Source of the DNA: Rhynchopus sp. YZ270_cl-10 | Lineage: Eukaryota | Direction: 5' to 3' | Assembly (NCBI GenBank): GCA_964035575.1 | Contig: OZ037833.1 | Location: 1,178,001 to 1,242,000 of the forward strand | DNA: 64,000 nucleotides | Shown: piece by piece, positions 3,996-27,212 of the stretch | Position numbering within the stretch: the first letter of the stretch is position 1 | Layout of the letters: every line of letters begins with the position of its first letter | Notes under the pieces: model-generated | Seen by the model: only the letters and a program-made list of their open reading frames with translations | Databases searched by the model: none | Told to the model about the DNA's origin: nothing | Translations under genes and position numbers: made by a program

Positions 3996-6537
3996 TTAGG
4001 TCATCTTCCGCCAGGAACTCCTTGAAGCAAATGGTCCAGCCTGAAGTACCCGAATCCACTTGTCTTGGGTTTGCACAGAGATGACTTCCTGAATGCGTGA
4101 TGTGTCGTTAGTGATAATTGGATTTGGTAGCGTCTTATTATTGAGCAAGAAGAGAGTTGTTCCACCAAAGTCTGATGGAGCATTGGAATTATTGCTACTG
4201 TTATAAAGGGACGGTGGACCTATTTTCCACCCTAAAATTTCAGATTTTCGCTTTCAGACCAAATTTTAAGTCGATTAAAAATTGTTATTATCCCGCTGCT
4301 ATCCCGCTGTTATCCCGCTGCTATCCCGGTCACTCTTTCCCCCCCTTTTTACCCTTAAACATGCACAATCCTGTAAACCAGAGATACGCTCCACGTGTGG
4401 AACGTATGGAAATCCATACGTGAATTATTTTTGAAAAGGTAGAATCCATACGTGTCCATACGGAGGTAATTTGGGTTTTGGATTGGGGCTGGGGTGGGGG
4501 TAGGTGAGGGGCGGGGGCTCCGACCCGCCTCTCACCTACCCCCCCACAGAATTCTACTCGTAGGGGACAATTTTCTTCAATTTAACCGGAATGGGGGAAT
4601 GCAGCATGGCGAAAGAAAAAGTAGCGCACCGTGCGCCTGCGGCGCTAGCTAACGTGTTGCGGAACCTCTGGAAGCTCACAGGGAGGCCGTGATGGTGATT
4701 GAAGACGACGAGACTGAGGACGACGATGCGAGCTTTTGGCAGCAAAGCCACCAAAAGCCCTCCCTAAGGGAAAAAAGCGCCTGGACGCGATGTTCAACGC
4801 ACAAGGCAAAGGTGCGCAAAGGGGAGGTGAAGGAGGAGCTGCTGCAGGTGAAGGAAGAGGTCTTGGAGGTGGAGCAGCCAGACAGCCCTGTGGACTCTGA
4901 GGTGATGGAGATAGATGCCCCAGCAGCAGAAGTACAAGCAGCCCAACCTGCCCAACCAGCCCCACCATCATCCTCAGACCCTCTGCCCCAGCTGCAACGC
5001 CAGGAAGGAAGATGGCCTTGCTGCAGCCTGCGCTGGCAAAACCGGCATGAAAGCGAGCACGCAAACTGGCCGAACGCCAGAATCCCACCCCAAATTTTTA
5101 ATAAAATTTTTTTTACCATCCCAAAAGTTAAAAAGTTAAAATTTAACTCCAAAACAGGGGGACCTATTATCCTAGGGATAATAGGTCTACCCGGATAATA
5201 GGTCCACCCCCCCTTTACACATAGATCTCTTGGTCGTCTAAGTTTGAGTTAAAGTCAAATGATGTTGGATGATTTATTATTGTACGTGGGTTGAGGTCTA
5301 TCCCATCTATGTCGATTCTCTTCCAACCACTCCATGCACTACCTTTGCGTAGTCGTGAGTACCGTCTTTCACTGAATACCGCAATGAGTTCCTGAATAAC
5401 ATAAGTATCGAAAAGCTTAACGTCCAGTATGATCTCATAGCTACCAATATCTTCAGTAGGACCATTTTGTAAGTTACCTAGTTTGTACATCAGGTATACC
5501 CCACTTGCTGTCTTTGTGTCAAGATCAATTACGGTGTTGGTGGGTAACCCTCTGTCATCCTGGTATGGTTGATATATTTTGTTTTCGATGAGTAACCTTG
5601 ATGCATTGTCTTTGTTGTCCATAGTAGATTCCAAGGTTGTTGTTAGGGCATTGTCTTTACTGTCCATAGTATTCTCAAGTGTCGTTCGTAGTGTGCTATC
5701 TTTGTTGTCCATCGTATTCTCAAGTGTCGTTCGTAGTGTATTGTCTTTACTGTCCATAGTAGATTCCAGTGTTGTCGTTAATGCATTATCTTTGCTATCC
5801 ATCGTAGATTCCAAAGTTGTTCGTAGGGCATTGTCTTTACTGTCCATCGTATTCTCAAGTGTTGTTCTTAGGCCAGTGTCTTTGGTATCCATAGTAGATT
5901 CTAGTGTTGTCGTTAATGCATTGTCCTTCGTGTCCATAATGCTCTCAAGTGTTTCCTGACTCAAGTCTTCACTTGATGTCCATGCTGTCCATGGTACTCC
6001 CACACCTTTACGGATTCGAACATACTTCTTAAGGGAGAACACAGCAAGAAGCTTTTGGGTGACATAGTTTTCGAATACCTTTGTCGTGACAATGAGTTCA
6101 TAGCTGTTCAAGTTTGTGGGTGCGTTTTGTAAGTTCGCCCAGTTGTACAAGTAGTGAACACCTTGGGTTGTGTATGGTGCCACATTCAAGTCGTCATTTG
6201 TATCATCATCTTTATGGTTGTAGTATGGTGTGGGTATCAACTCTCTTGTGATTGTGTCTTTGGTATCCATAAGAGTTTCGAGATCACTTCTTGCTGTATC
6301 AATTCTCCCTTGTACATCACTCATGTAGGCTTGAACTTTCCATTCAAGTTTTCCCCCAATATCTTTTGACACAAGCAACTGATCATCACCCGAAGCTTCA
6401 GGTACCCTATGCGTGACAATCTCATCAATATGCTTCGTAACAATCTCGCCATCCTCCTTTATAGCAATATGACCATCAGGAGCATTCTCTGGTAGGATTG
6501 ATGTTGATTTATCGGATTGAAGATAACCAAATACCAT
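3996..6537 (-). CDS. Fibre/receptor-binding-like virion protein (~509 aa when reconstituted) interrupted by a transposon; segments 6537-5216 and 4203-3996
   Basis: Three copies of a knob-like domain (DLN/DLD...GxY...NxP...QELI...RxR...WxxW) and eight 15-aa [15 protein letters not shown] repeats. Removing 4206-5215 plus one TA joins ...QEIYV to [10 protein letters not shown]...SSWRKMT* in frame. Confidence 0.75.
4206..5215. mobile_element. Non-autonomous DNA transposon (1010 bp, 23-bp TIRs, TA TSD; Tc1/mariner-type signature)
   Basis: AAGGGACGGTGGACCTATTTTCC (4206-4228) versus the reverse complement of 5193-5215, AAGGGGGGGTGGACCTATTATCC. TA at 4204-4205 and 5216-5217. Confidence 0.9.
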
Positions 6538-7079: not shown

Positions 7080-10000
7080 ATGATAACATCAGATAAGAAA
7101 CTCAAGGAGATAACTCAAGAGTACACCACCCCAATCAAAGCCTATGAGAAGCAGATCAACCTCCTCGGTAAGGCAGTGACGACTGGGGTATTGAGTGTTG
7201 GTACGATCCAAGCCATACAACAGGATGTCCTTCTAATTCAAGACAAGATCGTAAATCTCAAGTTGGAACAGAAGAAGGCTCTGGTACCATTTCATGAGGA
7301 GAAGAAGAAGGATAAGGTTGTCAAGAAGAAGATCACAGACAAGGAGCTTCTACCATTCGTACAAGAAGATATCAAGGATCTGAAGACAGCTGTTGCAAAG
7401 GCTAAGAAAGATCTCAAAGGTACCTTCTTCAAGCAGAACAAGTCAAGATTCGTCAGAGACTTCACAGAGGAACAACAAGGGCAGCTGAATGATATCGAGA
7501 AGCAACACAAGGAAGCCAAACGTAAGATTCTTGATGATGCAAAAGAGACACACAAGGAAGATATCATTCGGGGGAGGCTTGGAATAAAGAAGGAAGAACA
7601 GACAACTATCACTGAAGACCCCAACCATCTGGAGGAACTTATCGCAAAAACCACAGTAAAAGTCATCCATGGAGACAAAGGTACAGATGCCAAGATGATA
7701 ATAGAGCTCCCTGAACCGCTAGATGAGTACTTCTCTTCAACAATACGTGCACAATATGACACCATCACCGCATTCATTCAGGGAGACTTAGAAGGCAATC
7801 GCACCAAGAAGGTTAAGTTTATCTTGATGGCTATCTTCAGCAAACCAGACAATGAATCACCCAAACAAATCAGCAAGGAAGTATTCCTCAACAGTGTACT
7901 TGCAACAGACGTACTTGACTTAGATGCAGTTATGAAGCAAGGGAATGAGCTCTTCAACCGCGATGAAGGGGAGTCAGGTTTATTCTTTGTTGGCTTCAAG
8001 TATGTCACGATATTAACCTACAACACACAGATGAGCATCGGTGGTGAATATATTGATGTTGTGGAGAGGTTCAGTGCCAACTCCAATCTCAAGAAGAATA
8101 TTGTGAATGTAAAGAATGATGAGTACCCAGAAGTCAACAACGCATGCTTCCGTTTTGCTGTGATGGCACATGAGCATAACTTCCCGAAAGACGCATCACG
8201 AGTGAGCAAGTACTACAAGAAGAAGACTGGATGGATCGACTCAGATTATGATTTTTCTATGTTTACTGACTACACGCTTCCTACAACGGATCAGCAGGTC
8301 AAACACTTCCTGAAGGAAAACAAGAACACATCAATTAGCATATATGGTATTGAAGCTGCAGGCAAGTTCCATGTGTTGAGGCACGAGAAGTCCCCAAAGG
8401 AAGACCACATCAACCTCCTCTTCCATGACAACCACTACATGCTGATCAAGAACCTGAGCAAGATGATGGGTGATAATAACAAATATGTGTGTCCCAAGTG
8501 TTTGTCAGTCAAGAAGGATACCAAGAAGGAGATTGATGCCCACCTTGAGTCATGCAACGAGAAACCAACACAGAGAACACAGATGGCAAGGTCTGCTATT
8601 ATTGAGTTCTCCGAGAACAAGATGAAGAACAAAGAGATGAAGCCATTCATTATTACAGCAGATTTCGAGAGCTTCCTTGACACAAGAGACCAGGATACAT
8701 CATACAGCAAGACAAAGATAAAGACGCAGACAGGCAAAGATGAGACAACCATTCTCCAAACCCATCGTGCAGCCTCTTTCTCCCTAAAGCTTGTACCCGA
8801 CACTTCACTCAACTTTGCAGGTAAAACACTTTACACATACACACCTTCAGATCAAGATGATGCAGTTGAGTACGAGACTGACTTACTTGGTCAATTCAAC
8901 AATGCCTGCCAGGAGATAGCCGAGGACGTTGCAGCATTCATGACCACAAGCCAGAAGGAGTATGGTAGCATTGATAGTGCATGCATCGCATTTACAGCTG
9001 AAGATAAGGACAGACATGAAGAAGCCAAGAAGTGTGCATTCTGCAACAAGACCTTTAACTTCCAAAACATCAAAGTCAGAGACCATTGCCATTTGACTGG
9101 GAAGTACAGAAGGGCCTTGTGCTCTTGGTGCAACCTCAACAACAAGACAGAGTACAACATCCCCATCTACTTCCACAACGCCAGAGGATACGACAACAAC
9201 TATATCTTCAAGATGCTGAAGCAGTATGACTCAAATGGCGTCAATGTTCTGAACACCAACAGCCAAACAACAATGCTGATCAAGATGGACAAGTACACGA
9301 AGGTCAAGGTAAATCATGGGAAGGAGATTAAGAATAGGAAGATTTCGTTCCAGGTGAAGGATAGTCTACAAGTCATGTCGTCTTCGTTGGACACGCTGTT
9401 GAAGAACTTACCCCATGATCAGAAGGTACATCAGCTAGACTACATCAAGACCGCACACAGGGATATTGACGTGAATGATAAAGGCATGCTTGACCTCTTG
9501 TTGGGTAAAGGAGTGTTTCCATATTCGTACTTCGACAGTCCCAAGAAGCTAAGTGGATCACTACCATCGAAAGACCTATGGTATGACTGTCTAAGGCAGG
9601 ATGACATCAAACAAGAAGACTACGATAAAGCCTGCAGAGTGTGGAACACTCTAAAGTGCAAGACCTTCAAAGACTACCACGACTTCTACCTCAACATGGA
9701 TGTGCTTGGTCTTGCAGACGTCCTACAGGCACAAAGGAAGAACCTCCACACAACACATAAGCTGGACATTTGCCACTACTGCAGTCTCCCGAGCTTCAGC
9801 TATGATGCATGGCTACTGAAGCAACAAGAAGATGATGTGAAGATGAAGACCCTGAAGGACCCAGAACTATACGAGTTGTTTGAGGATCAAAAGCGTGGAG
9901 GGTTTACATGCACTGTGAAGAGACACTGCAAGGCCAACAACAAGCACACAAGAAGCGCAGACAACCAAGGCAAAGAAGGAGACACACACCTGTTGTACAT

Positions 10001-11336
10001 TGACGCAAACAACTTATACGGGTGGGCTATGTGCAAGAAGCTTCCCTACGATGATTTCAAGCTGATAGAATGCAAGAGTTTGGACTCAGGAGCAGAGCTC
10101 CATCGAGGGTTAACACCCGAGGAGACTGAGAAGATGATTGCCGACTACAACCCAGAGAGTGACACAGGTTATGCTCTAGAAGTTGACCTTGAGTACCCTT
10201 TGAGCCTCCACGACAAGCACTGGGACTTCCCTCTTGCACCATACAATAGGACTGTTAGAAGTGGAGAGCTGTCAGACTACCAGAGGAAAGTACTTGATGA
10301 TGAGAAGCATGCAGAGGGTGGGAAGCTTATTGCAGACTTCAAAGACAGAGTGAAGCAGACATACAACATTGAGTACTTGCAGTTCCTCCTCAGGCAAGGT
10401 CTGAAGTTGACGAAGGTCCACCGCATTGTCTCATTCAAGCAGGACAACATCATGAAGCCATACATTGACAAGAACAGTGCACTGAGAGCACAGGCAAAGA
10501 ACGATTTCGAGAAGGACCTGTACAAGTTGCTCAACAACTCCATCTATGGGAAGACCTTGGAAAATGTTCGTGGTAGGACAGAGATGAAGAACATCCCTTA
10601 CGACAAGACAAAGTGGGTGAAGGGGAAGGAGGTTCCAATGACAGAGGAGGAAATCAAGGAGTACATAGCAAAACATCAAAGCAAACCATTCTTCAACTGC
10701 AACACTGTCGACCTGAAGAGTAGCAAGATACTTCAATTCATGCAGGGGGACGTCACTCTTGACAAGCCTGTTTACATTGGCTCACAAATCCTGGACTACA
10801 GTAAGCTTCTCATGAACAGCTTCTTCTACGACACCCTCATCCCACATTTCGGAAGGGAGAACGTGACCATGGCCTATACCGACACTGACAGCTTTGTGCT
10901 GGAGATAACAACAAAGGATCTTGATGAGGAGCTTGCCAAGCTGTCTGCGGACTTCGACTTCAGCAACTACCCAACAACCCACGAGCTGTATGACGTAAAC
11001 AGCAAGAAGGTCCCAGGGAAGTTCAAAGATGAGCTGGCTGGTGATGTGATGGTTGAGTTCATTGGCTTGAGGGCAAAGTGCTATGCCTACTCAACGATCA
11101 AGAAGAACGACGACAACAAGGCCAAGGGTATAGCAAAGTCTGTCAGTAAAACTCTCAACCTGGACACCTATCGAAGTACCCTTGAATCCCACAAGAAGCA
11201 CGTTGTGACGATCAACAGCATCGAGAAGAGGGATCATGAGCTGCATACAGTGAGGTCTCAGAAGATAGCATTGAGTGCCTTCGATGACAAGAGGTATATT
11301 TGCGAGGATGGAGTCACCACAAAGGCCTACCGATAA
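7080..11336 (+). CDS. polB: Protein-primed family B DNA polymerase (pPolB), 1418 aa
   Basis: Exo motifs DFES, FHNARGYD, YLNMD; Pol motifs YIDANNLYG, KLLNNSIYGK, YTDTDS; inserted EndoVII-like CxxC..DHCHLTGKYR..CxxCN; OTU-like N-terminal NACF...NHY. Confidence 0.97.
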   Translation: MITSDKKLKEITQEYTTPIKAYEKQINLLGKAVTTGVLSVGTIQAIQQDVLLIQDKIVNLKLEQKKALVPFHEEKKKDKVVKKKITDKELLPFVQEDIKDLKTAVAKAKKDLKGTFFKQNKSRFVRDFTEEQQGQLNDIEKQHKEAKRKILDDAKETHKEDIIRGRLGIKKEEQTTITEDPNHLEELIAKTTVKVIHGDKGTDAKMIIELPEPLDEYFSSTIRAQYDTITAFIQGDLEGNRTKKVKFILMAIFSKPDNESPKQISKEVFLNSVLATDVLDLDAVMKQGNELFNRDEGESGLFFVGFKYVTILTYNTQMSIGGEYIDVVERFSANSNLKKNIVNVKNDEYPEVNNACFRFAVMAHEHNFPKDASRVSKYYKKKTGWIDSDYDFSMFTDYTLPTTDQQVKHFLKENKNTSISIYGIEAAGKFHVLRHEKSPKEDHINLLFHDNHYMLIKNLSKMMGDNNKYVCPKCLSVKKDTKKEIDAHLESCNEKPTQRTQMARSAIIEFSENKMKNKEMKPFIITADFESFLDTRDQDTSYSKTKIKTQTGKDETTILQTHRAASFSLKLVPDTSLNFAGKTLYTYTPSDQDDAVEYETDLLGQFNNACQEIAEDVAAFMTTSQKEYGSIDSACIAFTAEDKDRHEEAKKCAFCNKTFNFQNIKVRDHCHLTGKYRRALCSWCNLNNKTEYNIPIYFHNARGYDNNYIFKMLKQYDSNGVNVLNTNSQTTMLIKMDKYTKVKVNHGKEIKNRKISFQVKDSLQVMSSSLDTLLKNLPHDQKVHQLDYIKTAHRDIDVNDKGMLDLLLGKGVFPYSYFDSPKKLSGSLPSKDLWYDCLRQDDIKQEDYDKACRVWNTLKCKTFKDYHDFYLNMDVLGLADVLQAQRKNLHTTHKLDICHYCSLPSFSYDAWLLKQQEDDVKMKTLKDPELYELFEDQKRGGFTCTVKRHCKANNKHTRSADNQGKEGDTHLLYIDANNLYGWAMCKKLPYDDFKLIECKSLDSGAELHRGLTPEETEKMIADYNPESDTGYALEVDLEYPLSLHDKHWDFPLAPYNRTVRSGELSDYQRKVLDDEKHAEGGKLIADFKDRVKQTYNIEYLQFLLRQGLKLTKVHRIVSFKQDNIMKPYIDKNSALRAQAKNDFEKDLYKLLNNSIYGKTLENVRGRTEMKNIPYDKTKWVKGKEVPMTEEEIKEYIAKHQSKPFFNCNTVDLKSSKILQFMQGDVTLDKPVYIGSQILDYSKLLMNSFFYDTLIPHFGRENVTMAYTDTDSFVLEITTKDLDEELAKLSADFDFSNYPTTHELYDVNSKKVPGKFKDELAGDVMVEFIGLRAKCYAYSTIKKNDDNKAKGIAKSVSKTLNLDTYRSTLESHKKHVVTINSIEKRDHELHTVRSQKIALSAFDDKRYICEDGVTTKAYR

Positions 11337-11345
11337 GTCTTCAAT

Positions 11346-11368
11346 ATACATATCTCTGCGATATGTAT
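11346..11368. terminator. Putative bidirectional termination/polyadenylation hairpin between polB and MCP
   Basis: ATACATATC-TCTGC-GATATGTAT perfect 9-bp stem; exact reverse-complement copy at 15747-15769. Confidence 0.55.
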
Positions 11369-11384: not shown

Positions 11385-12791
11385 TTACAGCACAGCACTG
11401 ACCTCTTGCACAATCCCTGTCTTCAGGTTAAAGTCAACAACCTTATCGTAGTACACCAAACAATACAGGTACATGTCGTAGCTGGCCTCTCTCTCAATGT
11501 TCACTGTCAAGGTGTTTGCCTGGGTGCTTGAGACGCTGTCTTGGTTCAATGTGTTCTGAAGGTCAAAGCAGTACATGGGGTAGTACTTCCAGTCGTTGTA
11601 GGAGAGCAGCCCTTGAGTGGTGAACCCCATTCCCTCAGGATCCTTGTAGGCACTATGCATCTTCATGTACTCCTTGTAGGCAGACTCCCACTTGTTCTTA
11701 CCCACCTCAATTTCAAGATCCTTGCTTGGCACCTTGATGCCGTTCAGGTCAACAGAGATCTTCCTCACCATACCACTGTCAAAGCGCGACATATCATGCT
11801 CTTGACTCGTTTCCCTGGCTTTCGTTTGGCAGAAGATGATTGCACGTTTGATCCTTGTGTGCGACTTGATTGGTACAGGCCAGGAGATGTATGTGTCGCC
11901 AGCTGCAAACTCCTTCCTCTGAATTTGTGAAGACTCAAAGACCGCTTGAACCATACCAGACTTGTTGATGTAGCTCAGAACTCCAGCAAGCGGTGAAGGA
12001 GCCAAGGTGACACGAGGCATCCAGATCCTCATACCATACCCAACCCAGTTCAAGGCACGGTCACTAACCCCAGAAGAGCGAAGAACTAGAGCACTGTCGT
12101 CATTTACCTCAAAATTGAACTCCATAGGTATGTTGGTGAACATCTTCTTGTGGTACTGGAATATGTTGAAGATAAGACTGAGAGGAACCATGCAGTGTAT
12201 CTCTCTGTTCCCTGTGGTGCGTCTTGCGCGGTGTGAAGTGCTTGAGTCTCTGTTTGCAGTGTCATTGAACCCATCCACAAAGTCATCATTAACAGCATCC
12301 TTCCAAGTGATGTAGTGGCTAAGTAGATTGCTCCCCACAGTGTCATCGTATTGATTGGTGAAGTGAATGAGTGACTCTGCATTCATCTGCTGTCCTGCAA
12401 AGTTGGGAGTGTCCTCGATGTTGACCCCACCGATCTTGAGTGACTTCCTTCTGAAGAAGTTGAGAACATTTGACGTGAAGGCAGCTTTGTTATCATCATT
12501 GTCAGCAAAGGTCCATGCTTCTGTAGCATCCAGGGTCTTGTGTGCTGCAAGGTCTTCATACCCGTTACCACCTGCGTTGACCTTTACCATCTTGAAGGAC
12601 ATCTCCAAGAACCCTTCAGAGGGGATGATGTGGCTGCTCTGGTCAAGAAGGGTGAAGGTGAAGTCCCGCTCGACTCTTCCAAACTGGTTCTGCAGGTTGC
12701 TTGACTTCCCAGTGTCTTGGATGGTGATGTAGTCGTACCCACTGACATCGGAGTGTCTCTTGGTTTTCTCACTCAAATTGTAGAAGCTCAT
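11385..12791 (-). CDS. Major capsid protein (double jelly-roll, Polinton/PLV type), 468 aa
   Basis: Size, beta-rich character and motifs (FFRRKSLKIGGVNIED, VPLSLIFNIF, LNGIKVP, YPMYCFDL, LYCLVYYDK) typical of Polinton MCPs; viral context. Confidence 0.85.
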   Translation of the reverse strand: MSFYNLSEKTKRHSDVSGYDYITIQDTGKSSNLQNQFGRVERDFTFTLLDQSSHIIPSEGFLEMSFKMVKVNAGGNGYEDLAAHKTLDATEAWTFADNDDNKAAFTSNVLNFFRRKSLKIGGVNIEDTPNFAGQQMNAESLIHFTNQYDDTVGSNLLSHYITWKDAVNDDFVDGFNDTANRDSSTSHRARRTTGNREIHCMVPLSLIFNIFQYHKKMFTNIPMEFNFEVNDDSALVLRSSGVSDRALNWVGYGMRIWMPRVTLAPSPLAGVLSYINKSGMVQAVFESSQIQRKEFAAGDTYISWPVPIKSHTRIKRAIIFCQTKARETSQEHDMSRFDSGMVRKISVDLNGIKVPSKDLEIEVGKNKWESAYKEYMKMHSAYKDPEGMGFTTQGLLSYNDWKYYPMYCFDLQNTLNQDSVSSTQANTLTVNIEREASYDMYLYCLVYYDKVVDFNLKTGIVQEVSAVL

Positions 12792-14188
12792 TTTGATAAG
12801 CGGATTCTATCTTGAGCAAATAGAAATTGTCTCAGCTGTGTTTCATCGTTGAGTATGTCAGGTTTGAGTGTGGGGAATGCTCGTTGTGCTATGCCCTTCA
12901 TGCGTTCAAAGGATGGGTCTAGCGGTGGGAGAAGCTTAAGTCTTTTGTTGGTCTTCGGGGGTGTCGGGGTCTCCTGAGTTGACGTCTGTGGCTCCTGTGT
13001 CTCCTGTGTGTCATCTGACTCCCTCACTCTCTTCTTAGCTCTTGCCTCTGCTCTGGGGTTACTGTTCAGATCTTCATCTTTCCAATTAGGACCAGCAAGG
13101 TTGGTCATGAAGCTGTCCATTTGTGACTCGTGTTCTGCTTCTTCTACAGCTGTGTTTTGCGGAGCATCACCAAAGTCTTGTTCTGGAGTAGATCTTGGAG
13201 CATCACCAAAGTCTTCAGGGTCGTTGACCCCTCCTGGGTCTTCAGCCTCCTCCTCTTTCACTTTCAACAACCTCTCAATCCTCACCTTCCTCCCATTACT
13301 CAGTCTTGCATTGACTTGAGCCACACTAACCACACTAAAGATCTCCCTTGAAAACTTTTGCTTTGTCCCCTTTGCATGTATATTCTTACTCAACAACACC
13401 CTCACTCTATCACCAGGTTTTACACTAGACTGCGACACACTTGCTTTATCCAGGTTCATGATGAGTATGCTGACATCGTCGTTGGTGACAAGGTTCGGAG
13501 GCTTCTTGATGGTGCTGTGGTATCTGTTGTTGTAGGCGTACGTTAGCTCCTGAAGGCTGTCTACCCAGTTTGCTGTCTTGTTGATCTCAAAGTGCTTTTG
13601 CAGGATTTCTCGCAGTGTTCTTGAGATGCGGTCGACAATCCCAAGGGCGTTATGGTCTCCAACCTCATTCATCTGGTGTTCTATGCTGTGGGCGCTGAAG
13701 ACTTCCTTCACCATCAGGTTGTTGAATTCTAACCCGTTGTCACTCATGATCGTTTGAGGAAGGTCCTTCTTATCTGTCTGTATCTGATGTAGTATGTCTG
13801 TCAAGGCTTCTTTGACACTACCCATAGTCTTGTTCTTCAGGGGTCTGGTGTACAACTTTCTACTAAAGACGTCTATCAAGTTCAGGATCCACGAGTAGCC
13901 TTTGTTCCTTGTCTTGAGCTTCTGGAAGTCGAGGAGGTCCATCTGCATGACGTGGTTGATCTCGAAGGCTGTGATGTGACCCGACAGCTTGCTTGGTTTC
14001 TTCCTGAACAGCTGATATGCCCTCTGCTTGTGTATGTAGTCCTCTATCTCGTCAAGGGTATACTTTTCTTCGGGGTTGTGTAGCTCTGCGCCTGCAAACT
14101 GAAAGTCAAACAACCTCGCAGGATCAGTGATGTAACCTGAGTCTCGCCATAATTTGTTCAAGTTTACTCTTACTTCGTTTGAGCTCAT
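12788..14188 (-). CDS. rve-family (retroviral-like) integrase
   Basis: QMDLLD, LIDVFSRK, IMSDNGLEF, GIVDRISRTLR, YNNRYHSTIK, GDRVRV; acidic low-complexity C-terminus, no chromodomain seen. Confidence 0.95.
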   Translation of the reverse strand: MSSNEVRVNLNKLWRDSGYITDPARLFDFQFAGAELHNPEEKYTLDEIEDYIHKQRAYQLFRKKPSKLSGHITAFEINHVMQMDLLDFQKLKTRNKGYSWILNLIDVFSRKLYTRPLKNKTMGSVKEALTDILHQIQTDKKDLPQTIMSDNGLEFNNLMVKEVFSAHSIEHQMNEVGDHNALGIVDRISRTLREILQKHFEINKTANWVDSLQELTYAYNNRYHSTIKKPPNLVTNDDVSILIMNLDKASVSQSSVKPGDRVRVLLSKNIHAKGTKQKFSREIFSVVSVAQVNARLSNGRKVRIERLLKVKEEEAEDPGGVNDPEDFGDAPRSTPEQDFGDAPQNTAVEEAEHESQMDSFMTNLAGPNWKDEDLNSNPRAEARAKKRVRESDDTQETQEPQTSTQETPTPPKTNKRLKLLPPLDPSFERMKGIAQRAFPTLKPDILNDETQLRQFLFAQDRIRLSK

Positions 14189-14208: not shown

Positions 14209-14610
14209 ATGGTCACTACAAGCAGATATCAGAAGACACCAGTGTACGTATCACCTGTCGACATGCAGAGGATTGCAGATGCCTTAGGTGGGAAGAGCAA
14301 GACCGTATCAGTTACGTTGCATGCAAGTGGTATCAAACGGTATCCATTGCCACTAACCTCAAAGCAGAAGGAGAAGGTCAAGGAGAAGGGGTCAACACGC
14401 ATCACTTTAAGTCAACCACAGCTGCTGTTCATTGGAGGTGATAGGAAGGAGGGAGGGTTCTTGCAGTTCTTGGTACCGTTGTTGGCAGCAGGAGCAAGTG
14501 CACTCGCAGGCTCGCTTGGGACACAGCTTGGTAGCACAGCAGGGAAGTTCATTGATAGGAAGGTGAATGGGCGTGGTCTGATAGCACCTGGTAGAAGGTT
14601 AAAAAAATAG
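14209..14610 (+). CDS. Adenovirus pX/mu-like core (maturation substrate) protein, 133 aa
   Basis: Basic protein with KEGGFLQFLVPLLAAGASAL, resembling the GG|ILPLLIPLIAAA segment of adenovirus pX; AAAAATG start at 14209. Confidence 0.65.
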   Translation: MVTTSRYQKTPVYVSPVDMQRIADALGGKSKTVSVTLHASGIKRYPLPLTSKQKEKVKEKGSTRITLSQPQLLFIGGDRKEGGFLQFLVPLLAAGASALAGSLGTQLGSTAGKFIDRKVNGRGLIAPGRRLKK

Positions 14611-15062
14611 GGGGCTTTGCTCCTGAACCTCTTCGAGATGATGAGATTATAGACTGGTGTAGAGATCAGGGCATAGAGCTGAAAGGTATGGTGATGAGGG
14701 ATGAGATTACTGACAACATGGATGGGTTGTACTTGATAAACTTAGATGAGAGAGAGGGTAAAGGAACACATTGGGTAGGTTTCTTTCATGACACTGACCT
14801 TACTTTCTACTTTGACCCCCTTGGTTTACCCCCTCCCCAAGAATTGACTGCACACTACAAACCCCTCACATACAACAGCAATCAAATACAGGATGTCTCT
14901 TCTGCACTATGTGGCTACTTTGTGTGTTTGTTCTTCAAGTACATGCATACGTATGAGGACAAATATGAAGGCTTCTACGCAATGACACACGGGATCTTTG
15001 GCAGCGACACAAAAGAAAACGAACGCGTACTTCTTGAGGATGTGTACGATGTATCAAAATGA
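14607..15062 (+). CDS. Adenain-like cysteine maturation protease, probably expressed as a -1 frameshift fusion to the upstream ORF
   Basis: GTHWV (His), FDPLG (Asp), QIQ, LCGYF (Cys). The frame is open from 14595 but has no ATG before 14688. Confidence 0.9.
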   Translation: MGGFAPEPLRDDEIIDWCRDQGIELKGMVMRDEITDNMDGLYLINLDEREGKGTHWVGFFHDTDLTFYFDPLGLPPPQELTAHYKPLTYNSNQIQDVSSALCGYFVCLFFKYMHTYEDKYEGFYAMTHGIFGSDTKENERVLLEDVYDVSK

Positions 15063-15694
15063 CCTCATATTGTGTAAAGTGCAAGACAAAGACCACAGAT
15101 GTCGATGGAGAGGAGACAACAACAAAGAACGGACGTCGAGGTGTGAAGAGCAAGTGTGCTGATTGCGGTACAAAGAAATTCAGGTTTGCCAAAGGATCTA
15201 CAGCTGAAAAACAAGGAGGAGACATTGTGAAGGCACTCAACGACAAGTTCCCAGACACAGAGTTCCACTTCCCAGTCATGAACGAAAAAACAGGACAAGT
15301 CGAGAAGGCTAACTTCATGGGACCAAACACAAAGCTGGAAGAGAGAATCAAAGACCTTGAGAAGAATGCTGAACGTGCATGGAAGGGAGAGCAGATACCA
15401 AAGGAGGACATCATAACACCAGGCAAATCAAGGTTCGATGAAAGTGCGATGATACACGACCTGCAGTACAAACATGCAGGAAAGATAGGGAAGAGTGGGA
15501 AGGATGTACGTAAGATGAAGCACAAAGCAGACCTACAACTCATCCGATCAAACATCTACCATGCACTAGACCCCAACAACAAGAGCTCAATAGACAGAGT
15601 ACAGCACATAGCGAGTGTCCCCACCTTCATCCTCAAGATCCTAGGGGAGACAGCGTATGGCAAGATCACAGGGAATGGAATAGAGATAAACTAG
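15059..15694 (+). CDS. Zn-ribbon plus parvovirus VP1u-like phospholipase A2 protein
   Basis: YCVKCK...CADCGTKK, then FMGPNT...DESAMIHDLQY...KADLQL (HD catalytic dyad). Confidence 0.85.
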   Translation: MTSYCVKCKTKTTDVDGEETTTKNGRRGVKSKCADCGTKKFRFAKGSTAEKQGGDIVKALNDKFPDTEFHFPVMNEKTGQVEKANFMGPNTKLEERIKDLEKNAERAWKGEQIPKEDIITPGKSRFDESAMIHDLQYKHAGKIGKSGKDVRKMKHKADLQLIRSNIYHALDPNNKSSIDRVQHIASVPTFILKILGETAYGKITGNGIEIN

Positions 15695-15696
15695 AC

Positions 15697-15987
15697 TCAG
15701 GAGCAGAGCTCCCTCGAGGGTGCTAACAGCACCGAAGACTCAAATAATACATATCGCAGAGATATGTATAGACACACTTGTATTGTGACCAACCCGTTCC
15801 CAAGCACAACATTATGCCTCTTAGAGATGTCAGCCAGTACATCAAGCACCTTCTTGTTGTCTCTTTCTTCTTGCTTCTCTTGCTTCTCCTCCATGTCTAC
15901 CCCACTACCCTCCACCAAATCACTCCAGGTTCTCTTCCTCCCTGATACCCTTTCACTATCCCTCACTAGATTTGACCACGATGACAT
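15697..15987 (-). CDS. Small viral protein of unknown function
   Basis: A-tract ATG 6 nt after the mCP stop; contains GSG/GNG motifs; 3' part overlaps the hairpin, so the end is uncertain. Confidence 0.5.
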   Translation of the reverse strand: MSSWSNLVRDSERVSGRKRTWSDLVEGSGVDMEEKQEKQEERDNKKVLDVLADISKRHNVVLGNGLVTIQVCLYISLRYVLFESSVLLAPSRELCS

Positions 15988-17357: not shown

Positions 17358-17374
17358 TTTTTGTTATTGCAAAA

Positions 17375-18115
17375 ATGATACGCAATTACGTTACGAGGAA
17401 TGAGTCACCTGAGGATGATGAACATTCAAAGCTTCTTCCGTCGTGGCCATTCAGGATGTTGTCTGTCGGATCTTCTGGGTGTGGGAAGAGCACAGTGATG
17501 GGGAATATGCTGATGAACAAGGAGTTGAAGTTACCGTTTGACAGGGTCTTCGTTATCAGCACAACACTACACCAAAAGATCTACCAGGTTATGATGGAAC
17601 ACTTTGCAGACATTGACGAGAAGATACGAAGTGAGCTGGAACGGGAGTTGAAGAAGAAGAAGGTGAGTGAGGAGAAGATCGACGAGACCTTAGAAGCCTT
17701 GAAGCCAACAGCAGAGTTCTTCGACAGTGTTGATGAGTTCGATGTGGAGGACCTTGACCCCAACCAGAAGAATCTTGTGTTGTTGGATGACATTGTGATG
17801 GAGAAGAAACAGAGAGACTTCATTGACCTGTATGTACGTGGACGTCATCGCAACATCTCACCAGTCTACCTGAGTCAGAGCTTCTATGACACCCCAAAGG
17901 CGATACGACAGAACTGTAGCTGCTTCCTGCTGTTCAACCTCAACAAGAAGGAGAGACGGATGATAGCGACTTCATGCAGCGACCTTGAGCCTGATGAGTT
18001 CAACAGTATGTTTGAGGGTCTGCCCCGGTACAACTTCGTCATGATCGACAACCAGCCTGTTGTTCCTGAATTGAAGTATCGAAGGAACTTTGATGAGATT
18101 CTGTTTCCAGGATGA
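17375..18115 (+). CDS. FtsK/HerA-superfamily (poxvirus A32-like) genome packaging ATPase
   Basis: Walker A GSSGCGKS, Walker B VLLDD, RGRHRNIS..LSQS..PKAIRQN. Confidence 0.95.
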   Translation: MIRNYVTRNESPEDDEHSKLLPSWPFRMLSVGSSGCGKSTVMGNMLMNKELKLPFDRVFVISTTLHQKIYQVMMEHFADIDEKIRSELERELKKKKVSEEKIDETLEALKPTAEFFDSVDEFDVEDLDPNQKNLVLLDDIVMEKKQRDFIDLYVRGRHRNISPVYLSQSFYDTPKAIRQNCSCFLLFNLNKKERRMIATSCSDLEPDEFNSMFEGLPRYNFVMIDNQPVVPELKYRRNFDEILFPG

Positions 18116-20673: not shown

Positions 20674-21137
20674 CAGCTGTCGCACATGTCGCAGTCTGCG
20701 TTTGAGACCTTTGAGCACACAACGGGGCAGAGGATTGCGCGCGCAACCGGCGGAGTGCGCCTGCCCGCAGAGGTCGCTGCCGTTGTCGAGACCTTCTCCG
20801 GATTCCACGGCTTCCCCCTCAACCCCGTGTCTGCACCGCTTGAGAAGGAGAACGTACAGGCTGCCGGGGACGTGACCCCCCCGTTCCTGCGCAACACCTA
20901 CAACATCTCTGCTGTGCCTGCCAGCGGCAAGTCGAACATCCAGGCGATTGCGCAGTGCCAGGGCCAGTACGTGCGTGACGAGGACCTGCTTTTCCGTGTT
21001 TGTGAAGTAAGCGTGCTATCTATATCATCGTTCACATCGTTGGGTTCATCAACCACAGCAGCTAGAGAGTGTTTAGGATTTCCCAAAAGAAAACCAAATG
21101 TGCTGTCTATCTCAGCATACTGTGTTGAGCTAACGTT
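20674..21137 (+). pseudogene. Internally deleted duplicate of the S53 peptidase locus
   Basis: 20674-20987 matches 25932-26245 and 20986-21137 matches 27654-27805, with about 5 substitutions in total; joined at a CT microhomology. Confidence 0.93.
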
Positions 21138-21388
21138 CCAACCCCCAGCTTGAGCTGGGGTTCGACCGAGTTTTGATCTTCTTCTTCCTGTGACCAGCTT
21201 GTCAGCGGAGAAAGCTCGGGAAGCACTAGTTAAAATCACTTTTCTCTCTCTCTCTCTCTCTCTCTTTTTCTCTTTCAAATAGAACGATGGTTTTGGCTGA
21301 GGCCCGGGAGTTAGGCTGAGGCCTTCCCTCCTCTACCTCTCTCCTATACATGACACAGACCCACTCCAGGTTTACCAACACAAACACA

Positions 21389-25215: not shown

Positions 25216-25559
25216 GTATTTGTACAGGGATTTATACACCACTGACCCCCCTAGTGGGGGGGGGGGGGGGGGGTTTTTACCATATTGACATGGTGGAGGG
25301 GTGGGTCTAACGGGTTATTGTAGTTGCCATTCCATTCCGTGTTGGGTTGATACAGTGCATAATAATAGCAGGGAGAGAGGAAAAAACAAAAAAAGACAGC
25401 GATCCTCACAACTTTTTACCCTTCACCTCGTTCTCATCGGTGAAACTGGCGTTTTTCACCCCCGCCTCGCCTCCCCTGCATACCATCCCCCTGCCCTTCC
25501 TCTGAAATCACACCATATACACACGACAGGACTTGAGAAACATCAATTTTTGCAGAACA

Positions 25560-27212
25560 ATGCGTGTCTTGTGCCTTGCAGTGCTCATGGCACTCTCATC
25601 GGCAGAGCTTGTGAAGGTGCACACCACGATCAACACCCCGCTCGGATGGAGCAAGGTGGACGCTGACATGGACACGAACCAGGTCTACGACAACGTTGTG
25701 ATTGGGATGAAGCGTGCGAACCCCAAGGCTCTGCAGCAGCTTGTGGACGACGTCTCGAGCCCGAAGAGCGCGAACTACCTGAACTACCCGTCCTACGAGC
25801 AGATCGGGAACATGGTGCGCCCGTCGGCACAGAACACGGCTGTGGTGAAGAGGTGGCTGGCCGAGCACGGCATCCGCACTGTGGTGGAGCACCCGCACGG
25901 CGACCACATCAGGATTGAGGCGACGCTGGAGCAGCTGTCGCACATGTCGCAGTCTGCGTTTGAGACCTTTGAGCACACAACTGGGCAGAGGATTGCGCGC
26001 GCAACCGGCGGAGTGCGCCTGCCCGCAGAGGTCGCTGCCGTTGTCGAGACCTTCTCCGGATTCCACGGCTTCCCCCTCAACCCCGTGTCTGCACCGCTTG
26101 TGAAGGAGAACGTACAGGCTGCCGGGGACGTGACCCCCCCGTTCCTGCGCAACACCTACAACATCTCTGCTGTGCCTGCCAGCGGCAAGTCGAACATCCA
26201 GGCGATTGCGCAGTTCCAGGGCCAGTACGTGCGTGACGAGGACCTTGCGAACTTCTGCAAGAAGTACGACGGCGGTGCCGACTGCAAGATCGCAAAGTAC
26301 ATCGGGAAGGACAAGCAGATCCTGCCCGGTGTGGAGTCGATGCTTGACACCGAGTACATGGTGCCGATTGGCGGTGCCCCGACGTGGGTGTACTCGTACC
26401 CCGGAACCGACTTCTGCGCAGACCTGATTGAGTTTGCCGGGAACGTGTCCTCGGAGGCCGAGCACCCGTCTGTGATCAGCATCAGCTACGGATCCCAGAA
26501 GATCGACTTCTGCGAGACATCGCTGATTGCGCGTTTCAGCGTGGACGTGCAGAAGCTGGCCGCCCTTGGTATCACTGTGATGATCTCCAGCGGCGACGAC
26601 GGCAGTGGCCACTCGACCCGCCAGGGCATCAACGCAGGCAAGCTGAGCCCGTCGTACCCCGCATCGATCCCGTACTGCGTGGCTGTTGGGTCGACCTGGT
26701 TCCAGCACGGCACGTCTGGCGCTGAGGAGGCCACCACACAGTTCGGATCGGGCGGAGGGTTCTCCTACGACTTTTCCGCCCCGTCGTACCAGACTGACGA
26801 CATTGCGACCTACCTGAGCACCGTGTCGCTCCCGAAGCTGTCCTACGCCACTGGCGGCCGTGGCTCCCCTGACGTGTCGACCCTTGGCCAGTCCTTCACA
26901 GTCATGTGGCACGGGCTTCTCGAGGCTGTCGGCGGCACCTCTGCGTCGTCCCCGACCTTCGGAGGCATTGTGACCCTGCTGAACGAGGTCTGCCTTGCTG
27001 AGTCCGGGAAGACCCTCGGGTTTGCCAACCCCCTTTTCTACCAGAACCCGCAGATCTTCCGTGACGTGACCAAGGGCACCAACGCCATTGGCAAGAACAC
27101 CCAGGGATGGGAGGCCATCAAGGGATGGGACGCGTCCACAGGACTCGGAACACCAGACTTCCCGCTCATGGTTTCAGCCGTGAAGCAGGCCTGTGCCAAC
27201 GCCAGGAACTGA
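25560..27212 (+). CDS. Secreted S53 (sedolisin/tripeptidyl-peptidase I-like) serine peptidase
   Basis: Signal peptide, prodomain, ESMLD (Glu/Asp), SSGDDG, GGTSASSP (Ser), GWDASTGLGTP Ca-binding site. Confidence 0.95.
   Translation: MRVLCLAVLMALSSAELVKVHTTINTPLGWSKVDADMDTNQVYDNVVIGMKRANPKALQQLVDDVSSPKSANYLNYPSYEQIGNMVRPSAQNTAVVKRWLAEHGIRTVVEHPHGDHIRIEATLEQLSHMSQSAFETFEHTTGQRIARATGGVRLPAEVAAVVETFSGFHGFPLNPVSAPLVKENVQAAGDVTPPFLRNTYNISAVPASGKSNIQAIAQFQGQYVRDEDLANFCKKYDGGADCKIAKYIGKDKQILPGVESMLDTEYMVPIGGAPTWVYSYPGTDFCADLIEFAGNVSSEAEHPSVISISYGSQKIDFCETSLIARFSVDVQKLAALGITVMISSGDDGSGHSTRQGINAGKLSPSYPASIPYCVAVGSTWFQHGTSGAEEATTQFGSGGGFSYDFSAPSYQTDDIATYLSTVSLPKLSYATGGRGSPDVSTLGQSFTVMWHGLLEAVGGTSASSPTFGGIVTLLNEVCLAESGKTLGFANPLFYQNPQIFRDVTKGTNAIGKNTQGWEAIKGWDASTGLGTPDFPLMVSAVKQACANARN

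Follow-up and report, generated by a model that had tools for sequence, protein, structure and literature searches.

The window, i.e. the whole 64,000-nucleotide stretch of DNA analysed, belongs to a eukaryotic host with long uninterrupted ORFs and contains a Polinton-type element, in which an rve integrase (12788..14188, minus strand; PF00665, E 1e-10), a double jelly-roll major capsid protein (11385..12791, minus strand; PF21738, E 8.6e-11), an A32-like packaging ATPase (17364..18115, plus strand; PF04665, E 9.3e-11) and an adenain-type protease all scored above the Pfam cut-offs. A large plus-strand ORF of 1418 aa (7080..11336) was read as a protein-primed PolB from motifs identified by eye, the only Pfam match being to Endonuclease_7, and a DUF5679 protein (15059..15694, plus strand; PF18930, E 4.8e-13) overlaps the protease stop. 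The names pX, PolB, minor capsid and PLA2-like are used here as putative gene designations.

A search for long terminal inverted repeats in 4000-26000 returned only short pairs (20-28 nt). One short inverted pair is located near the left end (4204-4228 and 5193-5217), and a perfect 24-nt inverted pair (11345-11368 and 15747-15770) occupies both gaps between convergent genes, being a candidate for a shared 3′-end signal. Immediately left of the element, from window position 1 to about 3970, a tandem array with a 14-nt unit extends over about 260 registers. Part of the S53 peptidase gene (25533-27212) is present a second time at 20686-21153, and the flank is duplicated too.

Junction of the pX-like and protease genes

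All junction features are on the plus strand. The upstream ORF (14209..14610) encodes a putative core protein of 133 aa with the C-terminus RRLKK, which is referred to as pX-like only, as its match to Adeno_PX (PF05829; 19.8 bits, E 7e-4) stayed below the Pfam cut-off of 25 bits. Its 3′-end reads TTA AAA AAA TAG, so that a slippery heptamer A_AAA_AAA (A7, 14601..14607) lies in pX phase directly before the TAG stop (14608..14610), which is CAG in some sibling copies (T14608C; KKQGV and KKQGQ ends). The −1 frame is closed by another TAG (14592..14594) two codons 5′ of the A-run, and thereafter reads KVKKIGGFAPEPLRDDEIIDW..., with its first ATG only at 14688..14690, within a predicted β-strand (residues 25-30) and lacking the A-rich leader of the other starts in the element. 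This frame (14607..15062, 151 codons) encodes the adenain-type cysteine protease (Peptidase_C5, PF00770, E 1.2e-6, above cut-off), and the predicted pX-protease fusion would comprise 133+151 = 284 aa. Within pX, a KEGG/F motif (14446..14460) precedes an amphipathic segment and may be a maturation cleavage site.

The preliminary description had placed a −1 ribosomal frameshift here, and on re-reading of the sequence its coordinates for A7, both TAG codons, the small downstream stem, ATG 14688 and the fusion length were all correct, as were the in-phase X_XXY_YYZ heptamer directly before the pX stop and the protease ORF with no start of its own between the closing TAG and 14688.

Lysine is encoded in the 11 element ORFs by 97 AAA and 281 AAG codons, and only one of the 37 Lys-Lys pairs is AAA-AAA; pX itself has 11 AAG and 3 AAA codons, AAG being preferred outside the heptamer. 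Two in-phase slippery heptamers occur in the same 11 ORFs; the −1 frame entered at A7 runs for 151 codons, that at the other heptamer for 1. The placement of the heptamer in this element is thus more than chance.

Length of the A7 run and frame conservation in sibling copies

Part of the region is covered by nine sequencing runs from five studies, one of which may be the source of the window. Contigs covering 14548-14672 numbered 42 from X1, 11 from X3, one from X6 and none from X9, X8 gave no coverage of the junction, and among the contigs listed for X1, X3 and X6 no indel in 14601-14607 reached a share of 1%. Among the X1 contigs at this site, the one of greatest depth (5356) had no gaps in 14560-14613, and an X3 contig spanning the site (depth 1104) had no indel in the run. 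As contigs from three studies carry A7 and no length variant was among those listed, A7 is genuine and not a sequencing error; the A8 form, which would give a single ORF and which the preliminary description had named as a possible homopolymer error, was absent from these contigs.

Sibling copies retain the frame across the junction. The linker following the stop (14611..14627) is hypervariable yet in frame: all five measured net indels between the heptamer and the EPLRDD motif are multiples of three (−6, +3, +9, +9 and +36; probability 0.004 if independent), and one more variant, recognised from a loose end, would be a 9-nt gain matching the LKKMGV proteins. Outside the indels, three of the four substitutions listed in 14625-14640 are silent in the −1 frame, as counted by hand. 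The motif EPL(R/Q)DDEI(I/L)DWCR is kept by the sibling proteases P0003, P0004 and P0025, one of which has a 14-residue in-frame insertion.

The 20 sibling pX proteins, which derive from megabase contigs, include the protein of the window itself and are not independent of assembly, end in LKK (8), LKKMGV (3), LKKQGV (2) or LKKQGQ (2); one more continues from LKKQG into off-frame protease DNA, one has lost the run, and three break earlier. The L-K-K is kept in 16 of the 17 with this end, whether or not the stop follows. None of the 20 is fused to the protease, and a weak search among 213 candidates returned no longer, fused protease form. The copy without the run (P0032, with a loose end at 14602) is probably rearranged, no protease being listed from a contig of matching length.

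Other variation was observed in the siblings. Variable in-frame insertions of the protease occur at three loops (14611-14627, about 14681, and 14785-14801), and one insert, which contains a GC-rich hairpin, is similar to the insert at the P0004 junction, as would result from an in-frame spread of short palindromic units. In P0035 and P0052, a deletion joins the pX N-terminus to the ATPase.

Protease N-terminus and distribution of the layout

The residues His55 (14769), Asp70 (14814), Gln95 (14889) and Cys102 (14910) are invariant in an alignment of 33 sequences, from which the protease was modelled with an overall pLDDT of 92. Residues 7-151 of the model superpose on residues 1-191 of the adenovirus 8 protease (4wx4) with Z 15.1 and rmsd 2.5 over 141 aligned residues; the protease thus has the AVP fold and the His-Asp/Glu-Cys plus Gln set of an adenain (clan CE, C5). 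The region preceding Met 14688 is predicted with pLDDT 95-97 as helix 11-20, encoded within the 27 codons before this Met, and strand 25-30. Among the best 150 of 2670 distant proteases, most align from query residues 7-13 with a Met just ahead, and internal-Met calls are a minority. Homologous proteases accordingly start some 20 residues ahead of Met 14688, contrary to the outcome that would have undermined the preliminary description. The fold, the in-frame indels and the homologue starts together indicate that the protease requires codons before 14688, for which no ATG is available. A 124-aa form beginning at 14688 gave pLDDT 42, modelled from a single sequence with no alignment, which makes no fair comparison with the 33-row model.

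Relatives were surveyed at 129 loci, the metagenome part being the best 80 of 427, and grouped into 97 clusters including the window; 82 were scored after removal of the window and of rows with an uncovered N-terminus or too little flank. Behind a pX-family ORF, 17 of 22 protease clusters lack their own Met, and the remaining five have a Met at the position of a P-L-S motif; behind other genes, Met is missing in only three of 60 and present in 57. The corresponding p-value of 1.5e-10 is overstated, since the rows are kin. At the loci with an unbroken pX ORF the protease is at −1 behind an in-phase run of 7-12 A in 12 of 12 cases, a class that served as the profile seed set and excludes loci other than −1 by construction; the other 18 pX loci have offsets of −1 (10), +1 (6) and 0 (2).

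Counted profile-free, an A-run of at least 7 within an ATG-initiated ORF combined with a −1 protease occurs, among the Met-less rows, to which the window belongs, in 14 of 25, as against one of 64 own-Met rows. The +1 mirror layout is present in 10 of 25 and four of 64, respectively, mostly with short ORFs or in copies with changed run length. Where the pX tail is conserved, 19 of 20 proteases are at −1 relative to it. Across the A-run itself, the offset at 17 long-run loci with both flanking motifs is −1 in nine, +1 in six and 0 (fused) in two. Slippery run and frame offset, whose conservation in related elements the preliminary description had proposed as a test, recur in several lineages; the offset is other than −1 at eight of these 17 loci. 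Long A-runs are unstable, in genomes or in assemblies. A pX-protease in one genetic ORF is found in P0206, P0167 and P0188 (also P0202), which may be real or may be homopolymer errors. A joint probability for −1 frames open through the pX tail (log10 −8.4) was disregarded, since seven of these loci are closely related.

The window protease is 28-40% identical to its Met-less relatives with a −1 slippery run, and the Met-less −1 layout comprises about five lineages, 23-44% identical to each other. In a quick tree of 88 rows the Met-less relatives fall on one side together with 26 own-Met rows, the joining branch (support 88) being unstarred, and the topology is compatible with a single origin of the layout. 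Homology between the window pX and the upstream ORF of the relatives appears modest: the hhalign score was 31.7 (E 1.8e-4, probability 49) against a maximum of 17.9 in 60 column shuffles, the HMM score was reached by 4 of 500 shuffles, and pairwise BLAST of the window pX against P0167, P0142 and L146 gave no significant match. Atlas searches yielded unnamed clusters plus one lead at 0.86, 20% Adeno_PX, and single-protein scans of viral contigs returned no close relative.

From 160 further viral loci, 54 duplicates and 22 with an uncovered N-terminus were removed and 84 scored. The protease has its own Met in 77, six of them behind weak pX-family hits, four are in-frame fusions to other domains, and three are Met-less (L146, L135 and L157). 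L146 consists of a pX-like ORF and a Met-less −1 protease with an in-phase U_UUU_UUA, and in L135 (2405-2513) a PLA2-like ORF is followed by a Met-less −1 protease at A9. With own Met in 77 of 84 and few Met-less −1 cases, the layout is recurrent yet lineage-restricted. The shortest runs (A7 in the window and in L096/L108, and L146) are all in tandem-slip phase. Junctions with a −1 A-run were also found behind other basic ORFs in L007, L070 and L109, and the slip may serve other core-type partners, as in L135 and L007. In L007 (2381-2492), the Met-less −1 protease is at A9 behind a 45-aa basic ORF. Three loci were rejected as junction examples: L073 and the Met-less L157, in which there is no overlap, are apparently broken copies, and L144 has an own-Met protease and a chance A-run.

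Proposed translation of the junction and comparison with known systems

The layout is real, conserved and probably functional, and it is quite likely, judging from the sequence comparisons, that pX and protease are joined by some kind of slip. More specifically, we favour with some reserve a low-level −1 ribosomal slip at A7. The protease gene lies in the −1 frame behind the pX-like ORF and lacks a start codon at its front, and the 284-aa core-protease fusion would come from a small fraction of ribosomes that move back by one base on A_AAA_AAA, at the very end of pX; the majority would terminate there and yield only pX. The run itself would cause the shift, perhaps together with a pause at the stop codon, and no pseudoknot would be involved. 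Through the fusion, a few protease molecules would be attached to an abundant core protein and thereby packaged; release, if any, would be likelier at the GG/F site inside pX than at the junction. The core claim of the preliminary description, a −1 shift at A7 that leads from pX into the protease, has so far survived the refutation tests run. That an entire Polinton branch obtains its protease solely through fusion to a pX-like core protein by a −1 ribosomal frameshift with no stimulator, inherited and gag-pro-like, is a finely balanced proposition.

A classical 3′ stimulator was not upheld. Pseudoknot-free folding of the sequence at +5 to +65 after the heptamer gave z-values of −0.76 to 1.17 against shuffles for the window and 12 relatives, and four window segments, downstream of or spanning the junction, gave 0.39, −0.19, −0.91 and 0.32, none beating shuffles. 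The small stem GGGGC-TTT-GCTCC (14611-14623) does exist within the linker, but is no better than shuffles and begins 3 nt after the heptamer, when the usual spacer before a stimulatory structure is 5-9 nt (PMC5009743). A_AAA_AAA is absent from the strongest heptamers named in the same source. Inspection by hand suggests a recurring G-rich arm 3′ of the stop, with a C-rich partner, in two or three of the sibling variants. Hairpins 5′ of the heptamer (14540-14600) beat shuffles (z −2.27, 3/200) in one of five windows tried.

The release site KIGG/F proposed for the junction, together with gag-pro-like self-release, also fell away: the residues after the run differ among siblings, leaving no conserved junction cleavage site. 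The adenain cleavage consensus is (M/I/L)XGG, with a Gln/Asn relaxation (PMC4246237), and both KIGG and KEGG, having Lys at P4, fall outside it, although this consensus may not be that of Polintons. The counterpart of KEGG/F in the relatives is x-x-GG-F, often with Gln at P4.

The same fusion would result if RNA polymerase stuttered on the A/T run and added one A in some transcripts, giving an in-frame mRNA, which we consider unlikely. The junction with no 3′ stimulator and the runs of 7-12 A in the relatives would suit such stuttering, and A insertion by viral polymerases is known (PMC5009743); the precedents cited are, however, RNA-virus polymerases, the run of L146 is six U plus A, and the shortest runs hold the exact X_XXY_YYZ phase, which a polymerase would not need. 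On account of this phase, ribosomal slippage is favoured, weakly, over polymerase slippage.

A start of the protease at a non-AUG codon (ATA 14607) or from an internal transcript start, with A7 as the usual A-rich leader, is quite improbable. A-rich leaders precede all eight ATG starts inspected (AAAAA-ATG-G in pX), ATA-G follows A7 directly, and the run could be a relic start context; against this, three sibling variants have ACA in place of ATA owing to T14608C, the relatives retain no near-cognate codon at this place, and the fixed −1 offset in several lineages is left unexplained. Marginally more improbable is an intron or trans-splice ending at the YAG 14608-14610, through which an upstream exon would be connected to the protease. 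Removal of 20 nt (GT..AG, 14591-14610) would restore the frame, 13 phase-compatible GT sites lie upstream, and YAG is kept by both TAG and CAG variants, but the GT at 14591 is missing in one sibling type (a loose end; TRLKK proteins), only 7 of the 24 nucleotides upstream of AG are pyrimidines, splicing needs neither the −1 offset nor a frame open back to the run, and intact vertebrate Mavericks are described as having no introns (PMC8097293). A slip at the run is favoured over both because of the fixed −1 offset and of a protease frame that extends without a stop as far back as the run, often with a stop directly 5′ of it, and because ATA is lost in the CAG variants and the nearest GT donor in one variant.

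That DNA-level slippage yields some fused genome copies which supply protease to the others is very improbable: the fused ORFs named above and the variable offsets across the long A-runs of the relatives agree with it, but in the family of the window neither a fused copy nor an A-run indel appeared among the sibling pX proteins, the longer candidates and the contigs listed. Equally improbable, and largely refuted, is a start at Met 14688 or a decayed or mis-sequenced copy, since, even though gene callers start most sibling proteases there and mostly call one other family at the equivalent internal Met, such a start would remove the modelled helix 11-20 and truncate strand 25-30, in-frame conservation extends to the codons upstream, and A7 is present in contigs of three studies.

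In adenovirus, pX (mu) and AVP are separate genes, unlike the arrangement proposed here, and the GG/F sites of the window carry Lys at P4; the weak Adeno_PX match and the protease fold are the likenesses. Retroviral gag-pro (e.g. MMTV) shares a structural ORF, an in-phase X_XXY_YYZ before its stop and a −1 protease with no start of its own, whereas the element here is a dsDNA Polinton with a cysteine protease, A_AAA_AAA instead of A_AAA_AAC, and no pseudoknot or hairpin beyond shuffles.

In the phage lambda G-GT system, likewise of a dsDNA virus, the ratio of two morphogenesis products is set by a low-level −1 shift near a stop, but in a bacterial host, for tail chaperones and with no protease (PMC5009743). 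Ribosome sliding on AAA-AAA also involves loss of frame on consecutive AAA codons with no stimulator, and two AAA codons suffice in E. coli in vitro; it is described there, in a host other than the present one, as an error selected against and not as a route to an essential protein (PMC4363877).

Closest is the hypothesis of Buck et al. (preprint PMC11071296) that adintoviruses make Penton isoforms and Hexon-Adenain (Hexain) fusions by a −1 shift, i.e. a predicted −1 slippery site in a Polinton-like virus through which adenain would be joined to a protein of the virion. In that case adenain is paired with the major capsid protein, on the strength of a KnotInFrame prediction given in two sentences; in the window the partner is the pX-like core ORF, backed by frame evidence from sibling copies and across lineages. 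Within the literature searched, this hypothesised frameshift is all that is already known. A pX-protease frameshift in Polintons was not found in the accessible portions of that literature, which included PMC8502044, PMC11131425, 10.1101/2021.01.25.428050 and PMC10120064, and left out most subscription papers and Repbase notes; supplements might annotate such fusions.

If true, the proposed ribosomal slip would mean that Polintons set the dose of the protease and load it into the particle in a retrovirus-like manner, and would suggest, in testable form, by what route adenain enters the virion core; a recoding signal kept for morphogenesis would also argue that the elements make particles. It would explain the short internal-Met proteases of gene callers, with database entries mis-annotated as truncated or broken, and would give A-run slippage, elsewhere regarded as a fault to be avoided, a natural function.

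Adenains fused in frame to other domains were also recorded. C-terminal protease fusions occur in the P0093 cluster, P0073, P0145, P0166 and P0189; the partner domain resembles the second half of the window ORF 15059-15694 (PLA2-like in Pfam for some), the two being separate overlapping ORFs in the window. Adenains in frame behind LRAT-like or lipase-like domains were found in P0115, P0140, P0160, P0170 and P0178, and in L212, L214, L217 and L263. These latter fusions suggest repeated tethering of the protease to virion partners.
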